Shown: positions 5,576 through 54,973 of the stretch, in pieces
Layout: every line of letters begins with the position of its first letter
Numbering within the stretch: position 1 is the stretch's first letter
Source: a virus
Virus record (IMG/VR): IMGVR_UViG_3300006048_000003
Length of the DNA stretch: 64,000 nt
Reading direction: 5' to 3' (one strand)
Position numbers and translations under genes: made by a program
The notes under the pieces: generated by a model
Database searches by the model: none
What the model saw: only the letters and a program-made list of their open reading frames with translations
What the model was told of the DNA's origin: nothing

Positions 5576-5611
5576 TTTACTCCTACGAACCGGGAGTAAT
5601 CGGTGTATGCC
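5576..5611 (-). repeat. Dispersed repeat-like unit (covariant stem)
   Basis: Sense GGCATACACCGAT-TACTCC-CGGTTCGTA-GGAGTA-AA; 32 nt before GTG 5543. Confidence 0.75.
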
Positions 5612-5625
5612 CGGAACAACACTCA

Positions 5626-5661
5626 GTTGCAACTACGAACCCGTTGCAGTGGGACTTTACC
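5626..5661 (-). repeat. Dispersed repeat-like unit, tandem with 5576-5611
   Basis: Sense GGTAAAGTCCCAC-TGCAAC-GGGTTCGTA-GTTGCA-AC; contains the stop codon (5657) of the upstream ORF. Confidence 0.9.
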
Positions 5662-6169
5662 CACGCAGATTCTGGTACGCACGCATGGTCGCTTCCTGAA
5701 CCCGATCTACCAGTTCCCGCCAGGCGTCGTGATCGTTCTCGATATCGATCCCCGTGTCTCGTGCCAGACCATCCAAATATCCATTGTCATGCCCTTCATA
5801 CGGCTCGAAATCCCCTACTGATGTTTGATTGGGATACCACACACCCTGCCGCATCCCACCCGCGATCCCGGCAGCTTCGTTTTCTGAGTTGGCAGATTGG
5901 TCGTCATGAACAATCCCACCACCAACGCGAACGTGATTCCCCAAATGAGTCATCACGGAGCCATTGAGGAATCCACCATGATCCCTCAACTGCATATTGG
6001 CGAGAGCACCATCAATCCGTTTCCATGCCGCCTCGTCGGAGCGTCCGTTCTCGTCTAGCCAATCCGCGTAGACCCAATGACGGGTGGAATCATGTGGATT
6101 CTCGTCAATAGATCTCTGGAAATCACCATCGGAATGGGAGTAATTCGTGGGCTGCACGTTTGTAGTCAC
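5657..6169 (-). CDS. TIGR02996-like domain protein flanked by repeat units
   Basis: IDENPHDSTRHWVYADWLDENGRSDEA; SD GAGGAG before GTG 6169. Confidence 0.7.
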   Translation of the reverse strand: MTTNVQPTNYSHSDGDFQRSIDENPHDSTRHWVYADWLDENGRSDEAAWKRIDGALANMQLRDHGGFLNGSVMTHLGNHVRVGGGIVHDDQSANSENEAAGIAGGMRQGVWYPNQTSVGDFEPYEGHDNGYLDGLARDTGIDIENDHDAWRELVDRVQEATMRAYQNLRG

Positions 6170-6190
6170 GATGACTCCTCGTCGGTTGGA

Positions 6191-6226
6191 TTTGCAGCTA
6201 CAAACCCACTGCACTGGGATACCCAA
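6191..6226 (-). repeat. Dispersed repeat-like unit
   Basis: Sense TTGGGTATCCCAG-TGCAGT-GGGTTTGTA-GCTGCA-AA; between portal stop (6233) and GTG 6169. Confidence 0.85.
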
Positions 6227-6232
6227 ACACTA

Positions 6233-9200
6233 CTATACGATTCCCCATTTGGCAAATACCCGATGTGTCTCCGGGAACTTCTGCTTCAGGGTTTCCCTTC
6301 CGTTGGGGGTCGCATGGGCAAGTCGGAAGGCTTCCCCGAATCCTTCGGTTGGGTCAATGGCAGAATATTCGTTCAAGTTCCCACTCTTGATTTCCTTGTG
6401 CCAGGCTTTCTTCCACTCATCCGATGTCGAGAGTTGGTGGTATCCCCCTTCCTTCCCCGCAGGATGGGACCAATCAAGTGCATGGGCGACTTCATGGGCC
6501 AGGACGCCCATCGGGTCATTTCCCCCCGCGTGGAGGTGAACGTGCCCCACATCCGGGTCGTGGAAGCCGTTGGGGGCTGTGAACTGACTGTTCGGGTCAT
6601 CCGCAGCCTGTCCCGTGGCCTTCGTCCAGTGATTCCCCACATGCTCCTGTGACTGATGCGAAACGATGTGACTCAGCCTGCCTTGTCGGAGTCGTTCGAT
6701 CACGTTCGGTGAAAAGCTCTTGAGCATGTCGAACGTCTGTCCTGCCAGGTGAGCAGCCTGATCCGGATCTTGGACGTGGTGAACCAGAGCATTCGCGATG
6801 GAAGACGCGAAGGTATCGTGATTCGTCCAATCGACGGGATGGTGAACGCTGCCAGTGTCTTGTTGCTGCTGGGGCTGTGCGTCATCGTATCGGGACGCCT
6901 GGGTCGGAGGTTGCTGTGTTCCCAGATTCTTGACGTATGCTTGCCGGAACGCTTCCTCCATCGCGTGACGGGATGGCCATGCAAATGTCTGCGTCGAATC
7001 ATCCCACCTGCCGTGATGGGGCTTCACCTTGCCGTCTGGGTCGGCCTCCCCGGTCCATGCCCACGTTTCACCGGGGATGTGATATCCAAAGTTCTCAACT
7101 CCTTTTGGGAATCTCCCGTCGTTCGTCCCATAAGCAAAACCCCCCGGTGAGGCGACAACCCACGGTCGATCCGCGAATTCCTGCTGTCGGTGTCGTGGGA
7201 TTTTCGGTGGCTTCCAGGTGGAATACCATTCCCCGAGATTCCTTCGGAATTGAGCTTCTTCTGGCTGGCCGTTCTCTTCCAGGAAGTCCGCGTATGCCCC
7301 ATGCGTGGTGTATTCGTGGGGATTCTCGTCAATCTTCCGCTCGAAGTCCTCGGCGGTAGGTTCCATGTACATAGCCGGTTTCGGATAACCCGAGAATCCC
7401 GGCTTGCGTGGTGGGGAGTGCTGGAACATCACAGAGCCAGGAATGTATTGCCCCTTCCGGTAGGGTTTGTCACGATACGTCATTGCGACCGGAGCTTGAC
7501 GACGCTCGTACCTCGTGAACCCAATCGGCTGTTGGGGTTTCCTCCGATCCTGTCCGAACGACGGAATGAAAGTGTTGTTTCCTCCAGGGAAACCCATGTA
7601 TCGCTGATGACCCAACACGGGACCATTCACCGGGGGAGTCCCTGGTTGCTTCCCTGACGAAAAGAATTGCATTGGAGGGCTGATTCCCCCTCCTGGCGGA
7701 ACAGCGTGTCCTGGCATCGGTCCGGGAATCCCCGCAGGGGAGGGAACCTGAGCCAGTTGCATTGGTGGGGCTGTGGGTTGCACGCCCATCATCATGCTCG
7801 GATCGAGGGGACTTCCAGGAGGAACCGGTCCCTGTCCTGGCATCCCGTCCGGAGGCATCACGGGGGGAAGTTGTCCCATCTGCGGCAATTCCGGCCCCTG
7901 TGGACCCATTTTGGTCACGATGGTGGGTCCACCGGGGAACGCCTGAATGACGACCTCATCCCCCTCTTCTGGTCGGGAGAAATCACCCGCTTCCATCAGT
8001 TCATCGAGCTTGATGTACCCGCCCATGCTCAAGATCAACTTGCCCGACTGGACTTTCTCTTTCTTTTCCAAGTCGGGGAGGATGCTCTTGAACCTGACCG
8101 GGAACTTTGCCCACGGGAAGTTGTACTTCTTCAGGGGAGCCAGAAGATCGTTAGTCAAAACTTCGTCAAGACGATTGGTGTCATATACTAACAACTCATC
8201 CTTCGTTGCTCTCGAAAGCTCGGCACGTCCGGTGCCTCCAAGCCCATCCCCCTTATCCGCTCCGGAGGACATGCTCTGACCAACGAACAGCCTCTCAATG
8301 TGTCGGTCGAAGAAGTCCCTCACCAAGTCTTGAAGTGCTTTCAGTCCAGCACTGTTCATCTGGATCTGTTCGACTGCATTCCAGTTCTGGTCAGGACGAC
8401 GCGGGCAAACAATTGCAGCTTTCCCAATGATTTTGTTGGCGTTGATTTCTGCCTGGAGCTTCCCGGCTGCGTCCCCTGCGGGGTAATTGAAAACGAGCAG
8501 GTCCATCTGCCCGATGGCCTGCATGTAAGTGATCATCCAGGTCAGGGCGTCGGTACGAAGGACATAGAGCCAGTACACCATTCCCCGCAAACCCAATCCC
8601 TGAATACTACCCGCTAAGATTCCCTCGAAGAAGTCGGCTGGTTCCCGAACGTGCTGATGGATCACAAACCGTTCTCGCCACTGTTCCCGTTGAAGGACAA
8701 GGGCACATCCACCCCGGTCGGTGTAACGTAGATCCCCGTCCCCCCATGTTTCAGCCTGAATGCCTTTGTCCTTGTCGAAGGATTCCTTCCAGTCCCCACC
8801 CCACTTGGCTCCGTGGTTGGCGTACCAGGAGGTAGTCATCGAATCCATCAAGATCGCGGGGATGCCATCGAAGGTGTACTGGATGGAATCGCCGTGAACG
8901 GGGCTCCACGTCTGGTCTTTGCATCGCTGATTCTTGCCGTAGACCCAGAAGTTGTTGCAGTCAGGATCACGCTGGAAGAATCCCTGCACGGCGGATCGAC
9001 CGAACCACACTCCTTGTAGAAGTGACCACTTCAACATCGAGAACTGTGGAGTAGATTCCACGATCTTGGTCATGGAATCCCGAACGTACATCTGCTTGCT
9101 GTCGCGGTCATCATCGACCTCTATCCTCCAGTCGCGGTTCATTGTCGGTAAAAGTCTCTCCCACAGAAGCCCCCACAGGAACCCATCCCGTCGCATGGCC

Positions 9201-54376: not shown

Positions 54377-54390
54377 CTGGTCTACACCCC

Positions 54391-54426
54391 TTGACTCCTA
54401 CAAACCGGGAGCAATCGGATTACTTT
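54391..54426 (-). repeat. Dispersed repeat-like unit
   Basis: Sense AAAGTAATCCGAT-TGCTCC-CGGTTTGTA-GGAGTC-AA; contains the TAA stop (54420); 14 nt before ATG 54376. Confidence 0.75.
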
Positions 54427-54662
54427 TCATCAACGGGACGGGTCGTTGAAGTGCGGACCCCTTTTATGAAACCACGTCCGAACCTTCCGGTCCTGTCACC
54501 GACCTGCTCCCCGATATTCTCCGCGTCAGGAAGAATAATCTTGGGTTTTGGTTCTGGTGGGGGAGTGGGCTTCCAGGGCTGAAACACGAACAGGAACAAA
54601 CTGACAACGAACACAACACCCAACAAAATCAGCCATCCAGGGGGTTTTTCATCGTTTCTCAT
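54420..54662 (-). CDS. Small membrane protein
   Basis: One transmembrane segment. Confidence 0.55.
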   Translation of the reverse strand: MRNDEKPPGWLILLGVVFVVSLFLFVFQPWKPTPPPEPKPKIILPDAENIGEQVGDRTGRFGRGFIKGVRTSTTRPVDEK

Positions 54663-54670
54663 GGAAATCC

Positions 54671-54907
54671 TCACTTCGACTTCTTGCGTTTCCGTGTCTT
54701 CTTGGGTTCCGGGGGAGGTGGATTGACGAACTCCTCCACCTGGATTTCCAGTGCCTCGTACCGCTGCATGTCCTCTTCCCAAGCTCTTTTACAAAGTCGG
54801 TACTGAACCGGAGTCAAAACGAACCGCTGCTTCACTTTGACACGGAATTCAAAGACTTTCTGCCAATCTTCAGCGGACAAGAAGGTTTTCTTGCGTGTGA
54901 CATCCAT
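54671..54907 (-). CDS. Hypothetical protein
   Basis: SD CAGGAG before ATG 54907. Confidence 0.55.
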   Translation of the reverse strand: MDVTRKKTFLSAEDWQKVFEFRVKVKQRFVLTPVQYRLCKRAWEEDMQRYEALEIQVEEFVNPPPPEPKKTRKRKKSK

Positions 54908-54937
54908 TCGTGGGCACTCCTGTTCATGCGTCTGGGA

Positions 54938-54973
54938 TTTGCAACTACGAACCGGTTGCAATCGGCTACGGCC
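54938..54973 (-). repeat. Dispersed repeat-like unit
   Basis: Sense GGCCGTAGCCGAT-TGCAAC-CGGTTCGTA-GTTGCA-AA; contains the TAG stop (54966). Confidence 0.85.

Follow-up and report, generated by a model that had tools for sequence, protein, structure and literature searches.

Structured repeat units dispersed through a soil phage resemble the Cas12m CRISPR RNA scaffold and may be handles in its messenger RNAs

The Cas12m-like locus and the dispersed units

The 64,000-nucleotide (nt) stretch of DNA analysed here (the window) comes from the IMG/VR virus record IMGVR_UViG_3300006048_000003 and is a segment of a soil phage, with nearly all of its genes on the minus strand. It holds a gene for a Cas12m-like type V CRISPR effector, a CRISPR array directly downstream of that gene, and two dozen further 36-nt units that lie outside the array, scattered among the phage genes, and that are, as judged from their sequences, homologous to the array repeat. 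These dispersed units are the subject of this report. All unit counts refer to the 64-kb window, which is part of a phage contig of ~104 kb, and the gene and open reading frame (ORF) calls are those of our own ORF heuristics. The effector gene and its array are as follows.

10912-12816, minus strand: cas12m-like gene, 634 amino acids (aa) (P0001), from PDB and motif matches
10315-10789, minus strand: CRISPR array with 7 repeats (36 nt each) and 6 spacers (35-42 nt), all unique

The effector matches the PDB entry 23vw_A ('Cas12m') with E=1.3e-43 over residues 41-620, almost its full length, and the Cas12m2 structures 8hhl and 8hio weakly (E~8e-5); its type V identity by structure-database matches is to Cas12m structures only, not to Cas12a. 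The zinc-ribbon TNB domain is intact, its CxxC...CxxC being conserved in the effector clade. In the RuvC domain, the catalytic residue is replaced by Ala at both RuvC-I and RuvC-III, and RuvC-II reads A-E. The corresponding motifs VALGWR, IAEIDW and DRAVNAA are conserved across 25 close phage homologues (36-68% identity), most of which also read A-E at RuvC-II, with DRAxNAA as the third motif; the exceptions to Ala among them are a Ser at RuvC-I in one and a Leu at RuvC-III in another. The distant P0026 is the sole homologue that retains a D/E/D triad. Characterised Cas12m proteins carry the RuvC triads H-D-D, N-D-D or D-E-D; unlike them, the clade of the window effector has Ala at these positions, and it lacks the non-canonical metal-binding triad of type V-M. 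On these residues, the phage Cas12m-like clade is RuvC-dead. Given that pre-crRNA processing by Cas12m (crRNA, CRISPR RNA) is RuvC-independent, the missing triad does not speak against processing.

Read as RNA on the transcribed (minus) strand, the array repeat is GUAACAAUCCCAGUGCAACGGGUUAGUAGUUGCAAC, and ORF 10005-10286 starts 28 nt after the last repeat. The six array spacers gave chance-level matches only when compared with both strands of the window, and three of them, scanned as 24-nt exact matches in IMG/VR, gave no protospacer.

A covariance model was built from 28 units and then searched through the window. It returned 31 units, namely the 7 array repeats and 24 dispersed units (2701 to 54973); the 27 copies of a preliminary description of this DNA are present, but the total is higher. 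The model added 2699-2738 (plus strand, 43.1 bits), 15836-15875 (divergent, fully paired) and 47544-47583 (weak), and a further degenerate copy lies at 19945-19967, besides the 31. In an Rfam scan of the window the unit matched no family, the sole match being one transfer RNA (tRNA). The dispersed units are listed below with their stem letters, where these differ from the array type, and with the neighbouring ORFs.

2701-2736, plus strand: unit 25 nt before plus-strand ORF 2762-2995; its core equals that of unit 30492
5576-5611, minus strand: UACUCC/GGAGUA, tail/loop CCG/CGG; tandem pair (second member), with a terminator-like hairpin after it
5626-5661, minus strand: array-type stem; first of the tandem pair, with the stop of ORF 5657-6169 in its 5' part
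6191-6226, minus strand: UGCAGU/GCUGCA; between the portal stop and the GTG of ORF 5657-6169 (21 nt downstream, GAGGAG Shine-Dalgarno)
9548-9583, minus strand: UGCUUC/GAAGUA; second of a pair, portal ATG 114 nt on
9599-9634, minus strand: degenerate unit, CGUGGC/GUUGCA; its loop holds the stop of ORF 9609-9908
9940-9975, minus strand: UGCUUC/GAAGCA; GTG of ORF 9609-9908 31 nt on
9998-10033, minus strand: UGCUCC/GGGGUG, CCG/CGG; its loop holds the stop of ORF 10005-10286
12845-12880, minus strand: leader unit of cas12m, CGCAGC/GCUGCG; directly after a promoter-like motif, cas12m ATG 28 nt on
15787-15822, minus strand: unit with one A.A mismatch; inside the coding sequence, in the inter-domain linker of a 719-aa protein
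15838-15873, minus strand: divergent unit, UAUCGG/CCGAUG, fully paired; in the linker coding sequence of the 719-aa protein
17434-17469, minus strand: unit with the ATG of TIGR02996 ORF 16553-17410 23 nt on
17480-17515, minus strand: CUCAUC/GGUGGG; its loop holds the stop of ORF 17487-17738
18591-18626, minus strand: CGCAUC/GAUGUG, CCG/CGG; GTG of ORF 18180-18566 24 nt on
19695-19730, minus strand: UGCGAC/GUUGCA, tail/loop mismatch; ATG of ORF 19125-19667 27 nt on
27504-27539, minus strand: array-type unit; 5' end of a 1966-aa ORF, in frame if the start is GTG 27614
30443-30478, minus strand: CGCACC/GGGGCG, one A.G; ATG of TIGR02996 ORF 29984-30415 27 nt on
30492-30527, minus strand: array-type unit; first of a pair
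47546-47581, minus strand: weak unit (22.8 bits) with two mismatches; a tRNA-like element immediately precedes it, sliding-clamp-like gene 77 nt on
49599-49634, minus strand: UGCUCC/GGAGCG, CCG/CGG; within open frame 48954-50099
49660-49695, minus strand: CACGAC/GUCGUG; first of a pair
50134-50169, minus strand: UGCGGC/GCCGUA; directly after promoter-like motif 50170-50199, ATG 34 nt on
54391-54426, minus strand: UGCUCC/GGAGUC, CCG/CGG; ATG of TIGR02996 ORF 53819-54376 14 nt on
54938-54973, minus strand: UGCAAC/GUUGCA, CCG/CGG; ATG of ORF 54671-54907 30 nt on

Covariation and fold of the units

The preliminary description had proposed that selection acts on the units as RNA structures, citing a 6-base-pair (bp) stem that is rewritten but stays paired. 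All seven stem variants that it quoted, for the array repeat and for units 5576, 9940, 12845, 17480, 18591 and 50134, are found where it had placed them, on the minus strand. We aligned 28 units without gaps (alignment A1) and scored a structure made of the 6-bp stem and a 3-bp helix between the 5' tail and the loop. In A1, 97.2% of the cells are paired with a covariation score of 0.506, against 0.18 in column shuffles, none of 500 reaching the observed value; when the 3' partner is slid by 1-3 columns, only 22-45% of the cells pair and the score is <=0.10. RNAalifold, unaided, predicts the same 6-bp stem, for which 97.6% of the cells are paired in the window and double changes occur in 4 of the 6 pairs.

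That description had let its proposal hinge on whether covariation outlasts a correction for shared ancestry, and it does. For the tree-aware null, a neighbour-joining tree was made from 26 distinct cores (30 columns) and the parsimony changes of each column were re-placed on random branches. For the whole structure, none of 2000 simulations matches the observed pairing (96.2% vs 79.5% in the null), covariation (0.60 vs 0.19) or number of pair types (21 vs 11), and for the 6-bp stem alone the result is 0/1000. For the 3-bp tail/loop helix alone, in this phage, 4 of 1000 simulations match the covariation and 14 of 1000 the pairing. Within this genome the helix is thus significant, but it amounts to essentially one covarying pair, CCC/GGG versus CCG/CGG. 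The latter variant, earlier reported for six units, is real and is carried by seven, with 49599 added; the earlier exceptions to tail/loop pairing (10459, 19695 and 30443) are likewise real, though 47546 makes a fourth.

Wobble pairs tell which strand folds. There are 18 G-U cells against 4 C-A cells on the sense strand (binomial p=0.004), so the G-U excess noted before is borne out, at a count of 18 and not about 15. Read from the opposite strand, the 18 G-U cells would be mismatches; it is thus the sense strand that folds. Among the few usable variants listed for related strains, 12867 G>A turns a C-G pair into U-G on the sense strand, and all 24 dispersed units are co-oriented with the adjacent genes, including the sole plus-strand unit beside a plus-strand ORF.

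Relatives of the phage extend these observations. Every contig fetched for the close effector homologues (L001-L006) carries phage genes. The nearest relative, L001, has a Cas12m 68% identical to that of the window, is syntenic with it and bears dispersed units on the gene strand; mirror cases on the opposite strand, each upstream of minus-strand genes, occur at 21368-21407(-) in L001 and 18596-18621(-) in L021. Five units are syntenic between the window and L001, namely the cas12m leader, the unit after the portal, the first and last of the cluster after the next ORF, and that of the opposite-strand gene. Of their 45 base pairs, 33 are identical in the two phages and 10 have undergone compensatory double changes, while one more differs by a wobble and one is broken; the cas12m leader unit is among those with a compensatory change. 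Four of the 10 compensatory changes are a single tail/loop switch, from CCC/GGG to GCC/GGC, and such repetition suggests concerted evolution of the units inside one phage. Units resemble each other more within a phage than orthologues do, which suggests gene conversion.

Across five phages, an alignment of 93 units reaches 98.5% pairing; double changes affect 8 of the 9 pairs, among them all 6 of the 6-bp stem. Tail/loop pairs are there distributed as CG:80/GC:9 and CG:50/GC:22/UG:14/UA:1, the variants in relatives being GCC/GGC, GCG/CGC, CCU/AGG, ACC/GGU, GCU/AGC and GGC/GCC. Because the relatives covary there, the tail/loop helix has firm support. More distant Cas12m-like IMG/VR loci were found with an alignment query (24-31% identical, plus one at 51%, which is the L003 contig), and were searched with a descriptor of tail, 2 nt, 6-bp stem, tail complement, UU… and stem. 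It recovers array repeats in most of the distant phage loci (~20 further loci) with the same two helices in other letters, such as the tail/loop helices ACC/GGU, GCU/AGC and GGC/GCC and quite different stems.

Solitary units are present in several IMG/VR phages, the window and L001 being the most extreme among the loci examined. Units or mini-arrays stand just upstream of cas12m in L002, L003, L004, L016 and L021; cas12m is immediately preceded by further, diverged repeats in a second cluster, or by a mini-array of two units, at 9451-9972 in L003/L007, 9343-9708 in L021 and 9864-9950 in L004. In L004 there are three solitary units, and an array is absent within 10 kb. Separately, L002, L003 and L004 have 6-8 copies per locus of a short motif, TTCTTCCCCTAACG / TTCTCCTAACG, which might be a candidate promoter or leader element.

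The fold of the dispersed units is under selection on the sense strand. The tree-aware null, the slid controls, the G-U asymmetry, the co-orientation and the compensation between syntenic units together uphold the earlier claim that these are selected RNA structures, not array debris or DNA sites. Neutral array-repeat debris, spread by recombination and slowly decaying, would account for the degenerate copies 9599, 47546 and 19945-19967, and a within-phage likeness above that of orthologues, with its hint of gene conversion, would fit it as well. Pairing is nevertheless kept through many double changes, beyond the tree-aware null, unit positions are syntenic across phages whose proteins are 68% identical, and placement relative to stops and starts is regular. 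Matched-pair base changes of this kind imply that the units are preserved as folded RNA, not junk, and we regard decay as extremely improbable.

As to which RNA fold is preserved, the cryo-electron microscopy description of the Cas12m2 crRNA in PMC10442227 gives a 36-nt scaffold with a disordered 5' end. In its 6-bp 'PK' helix, C(-22..-17) pairs with G(-8..-3), and the closing pair is the non-canonical G(-23).A(-2); A(-24) is flipped out, a short stem is coaxial on the PK helix, and C(-1) is read base-specifically, again as set out there. The GoCas12m crRNA scaffold is described similarly (PMC11013384), and the window units share the layout of the MsCas12m pre-crRNA (sequence in PMC11013384, Table S5), which is known from experiment to be processed. 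Each element of the Cas12m2 scaffold has its match in the units, whose loop is longer by one nucleotide. Common to the units and the Cas12m scaffolds (MmCas12m2, GoCas12m, MsCas12m) are the 36 nt, a helix of about -23..-18 with -8..-3, the 5'-tail/loop helix and an unpaired A before the helix and, in the array repeats, the G.A pair and terminal AC. Among 28 aligned units, the A of column 14 and the U of column 25 are invariant (28/28), and G/U/A of columns 28-30 are mostly conserved.

Because the units map onto the Cas12m2 scaffold, the 'stem' of the preliminary description corresponds to the published PK helix, and its 'pseudoknot' to the published stem. Its pseudoknot with loop-tail pairing is thus borne out by covariation, while the Cas12a handle that it took as reference fold gives way to the Cas12m crRNA scaffold, which, by this element-by-element match, is the reference; it is not specifically a Cas12a handle. 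The Cas12a 5' handle is alike in being a repeat-derived pseudoknot handle of a self-processing type V effector, but it has other helix lengths and another loop, and the window effector is not a Cas12a.

The units fall into two classes. Class I comprises the 7 array repeats and ~7 dispersed units, with G/C.A beside the helix and C at -1. In class II, A stands at -1 (16/24 dispersed units), and 12 of these 16 have a Watson-Crick seventh pair in place of G.A (Fisher p=0.008); this extra pair itself covaries, being U-A seven times and C-G five times. Class II is shared with the orthologous cas12m-leader and pair-last units of L001. As a whole, therefore, the dispersed set departs from the G.A closing pair and C(-1) of the Cas12m scaffold. 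Since C(-1) is read base-specifically in Cas12m2, class II units may bind or act differently, or bind more weakly. For the handle subclass with the UGCUCC stem, a separate reader protein was considered as well.

Placement at gene junctions

Unlike in the systems of MmCas12m2, GoCas12m and MsCas12m, 24 copies in the window stand outside the array, in messenger RNA (mRNA) leaders and between cistrons. The stops of upstream ORFs fall inside units: some are the UAG of the loop and end at -7 or -10, others belong to the 5' part, at about -28 to -32. Downstream ORFs start 14-34 nt past most units, often with a GGAG-type Shine-Dalgarno in between. Spacings are similar in L001, the distance from unit to portal being 114-116 nt in both phages. 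There are seven tandem pairs, whose two members always differ in stem, and no units lie within the structural block (30.6-47.5 kb). Some units follow a promoter-like motif, ATTTGCCTT-N-TAG(G/A)GT, of which there are four copies.

12881-12911, minus strand: promoter-like motif, before unit 12845
50170-50199, minus strand: promoter-like motif, before unit 50134
19969-19999, minus strand: promoter-like motif, before the degenerate unit
55383-55413, minus strand: promoter-like motif

It leads without a gap into unit 12845 (the cas12m leader), unit 50134 and, at the third copy, a degenerate unit; in L001, too, the promoter-like motif is followed by handle, Shine-Dalgarno and cas12m in this order. 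A reading of the units as terminators was rejected: they have no U-tract, and the terminator-like hairpin after unit 5576 is a separate element.

As the main alternative, the units could be regulatory crRNA-like guides or mini-arrays, in which a unit and the next 17-20 nt would load Cas12m and direct it to DNA of the host, of competing phages or of its own locus, where transcription would be silenced; in the own-locus form, the altered 3' end (RAA for AAC) would serve as protospacer-adjacent motif (PAM). Cas12m is a DNA-binding silencer for which a 17-bp heteroduplex suffices, the seven tandem pairs resemble mini-arrays with short spacers, and it is precisely at the position equivalent to a PAM that class II units depart from array repeats. 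Regulation of cas genes by mini-arrays and solitary repeats is on record (PMC10120712), and L004 has its two-unit mini-array just upstream of cas12m with no array within 10 kb. Against guides, however, 0 of 25 18-nt pseudo-spacers match either strand of the 64-kb window better than shuffled controls, the pseudo-spacers of syntenic units are unconserved save for the Shine-Dalgarno and start codon, and the unit 3' ends lack a T-rich PAM of the characterised Cas12m type.

According to Shmakov et al. 2023 (PMC10120712), crRNA-like elements are reported mostly in type I and also in subtype V-A. The elements covered there (CreR/crlRNA/scaRNA/tracr-L) are stand-alone and repeat-like, often two-repeat mini-arrays upstream of the effector, with a presumed role in regulating cas or cargo genes, a description that the cas12m leader unit fits. 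As described in that source, CreR/crlRNA systems number one or few per locus and have partial promoter complementarity, whereas the window has two dozen diversified units over 52 kb and yielded no in-window target. On balance we consider a guide function unlikely, though it deserves to be kept in mind.

Viral solitary repeat units can also inhibit cognate host effectors (PMC10651486), and the units might be such Racr-like RNA decoys, here against a host Cas12m. Racrs are, in the account of PMC10651486, virus-encoded solitary CRISPR repeats expected to bind a Cas protein, as the units may be, but they mimic host repeats against a host effector; in the window the effector is the phage's own, encoded with its cognate array. 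Moreover, the stems are diversified where a decoy would mimic one repeat, the units stand at gene junctions and not as stand-alone small RNA genes, and no relative of the window Cas12m was found in 185,579 species genomes, that is, no cellular one. We give decoys very little credence.

In a related strain (run X6), 18183-18594, with the ORF after unit 18591, is absent and 21 other letters stand instead, one joint lying at the 3' edge of the unit; this looks like a cassette-type gain or loss beside a handle. A joint at a unit edge, and the cassette-like way in which units flank small accessory ORFs, would suit structured sites at the DNA level, whether attC-like hairpins for recombination and cassette exchange or elements for replication or packaging, and covariation is also seen in structure-specific DNA sites. 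Yet the adjacent effector is RNA-guided and its RNA fold is solved, and the units are homologues of its repeat; the pseudoknot helix covaries too, the units follow the local direction of transcription, and no integrase-type partner was identified near them; DNA sites seem to us highly improbable. As separate observations, units 2701-2736(+) and 30492-30527(-) share ~38 nt of identity, including the 5' part, and form an inverted repeat 27.7 kb apart, and assembly contigs from public runs switch or break at several units.

Other phage genes in the window encode a Mu-type portal (6233-9433), both terminase subunits (small and large) and a sliding-clamp-like protein, and there is one tRNA. Ten ORFs of small or medium size were tested, and in nine of them the N-terminus has a TIGR02996 'repeat-companion' domain.

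5657-6169, minus strand: TIGR02996 ORF
16553-17410, minus strand: TIGR02996 ORF
18620-19120, minus strand: TIGR02996 ORF
28663-29637, minus strand: TIGR02996 ORF
29984-30415, minus strand: TIGR02996 ORF
51903-52640, minus strand: TIGR02996 ORF
53819-54376, minus strand: TIGR02996 ORF
56651-57496, minus strand: TIGR02996 ORF
58608-59504, minus strand: TIGR02996 ORF

A handle unit directly precedes four genes with this domain, whose VYADWLEE motif also gives rise to the DNA repeat families D6/D7; so large a paralogous TIGR02996 family suggests a host of Planctomycetota type. Residues 973-1060 of the portal (6233-9433, minus strand) match Pfam ATLF (anthrax lethal factor N/C-terminal domain) with E=1.5e-7; the portal C-terminus may thus carry a fused module of metalloprotease type. 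A neighbouring 615-aa protein (2992-4839) has a PI3/PI4-kinase-like motif. Immediately upstream of the weak unit 47546-47581 lies a tRNA-like element, 47586-47635 (minus strand), with the T-arm GGUUCGAUUCC. It has a weak mascRNA/menRNA match (23 bits, below threshold), ARAGORN does not call it a tRNA, and it may be either a processing signal that resembles a tRNA or the remnant of an att site.

A possible role in messenger RNA

At a probability of roughly 0.6, we favour the view that the dispersed units are copies of the crRNA scaffold of the phage's own Cas12m, acting in cis as mRNA elements that this protein binds and through which expression is controlled. Binding of the dispersed units by Cas12m is what we infer from their homology to the array repeat and from the conserved unpaired bases, and processing of them from the behaviour of characterised relatives. 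The units would be transcribed within phage mRNAs and kept as an H-type pseudoknot, in which the 3-bp tail/loop helix stacks on the 6-7-bp helix, with the conserved unpaired A, UU and GUA. The RuvC-dead Cas12m would most likely bind them as it would array repeats and would probably, by analogy with characterised Cas12m, cut just 5' of the knot, separating the cistrons, and then stay bound to the newly made 5' end; the 'guide' segment would hold the ribosome-binding site. Because units lie between an upstream stop and a Shine-Dalgarno and start, or after a promoter, Cas12m would be left at the 5' end of the downstream message. The outcome would be processing of operon transcripts together with control of stability or translation gene by gene, including feedback on cas12m.

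Several points weigh against this view. The outcome for expression is conjecture, and a search of RNA runs gave none with the window sequence. Sixteen of the 24 dispersed units have A in place of C(-1), the very base that Cas12m2 reads specifically. Several units have one mismatch, and inside this genome the tail/loop helix is backed by few independent events. Lastly, five units (15787, 15838, 27504, 49599 and 49660) lie inside open reading frames, where a pure leader model fails. Units 15787 and 15838 are in frame (…QRVSS…) in a variable linker of a two-domain protein of 719 aa, the flanks of which align with the L001 orthologue; the L001 linker is unrelated and has no units.

A bolder version, which we hold to be somewhat short of even odds, takes the nuclease-dead Cas12m to have turned from a DNA-targeting effector of immunity into the reader of a viral gene-expression code, with about two dozen marked junctions, genes in the place of giant spacers, and class II units (7-bp stem, A at -1) specialised for the mRNA role. 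Among known systems, TldR is comparable, as PMC10705468 describes it, in belonging to the TnpB/Cas12 lineage, in having lost RuvC catalysis and in regulating genes, sometimes from prophages; it differs in using one long guide RNA against a host promoter, where the window has an array and many short handles in its own transcripts.

CRISPR repeats outside arrays have so far been known as single regulators or decoys, and our literature search found no description of dispersed Cas12m handles. None of the known solitary repeats, mini-arrays/crlRNAs, CreR or Racrs combines an effector encoded by the virus itself with diversified handles that stand by the dozen at gene junctions. The units make it testable whether Cas12m acts on RNA in cis. 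If the proposal is true, it would represent natural Cas-mediated processing or insulation of polycistronic mRNAs, until now the work of engineers only; it would provide a panel of naturally orthogonal handle variants, and the RuvC-dead Cas12m proteins of phages would, as an entire clade, have a function assigned to them.

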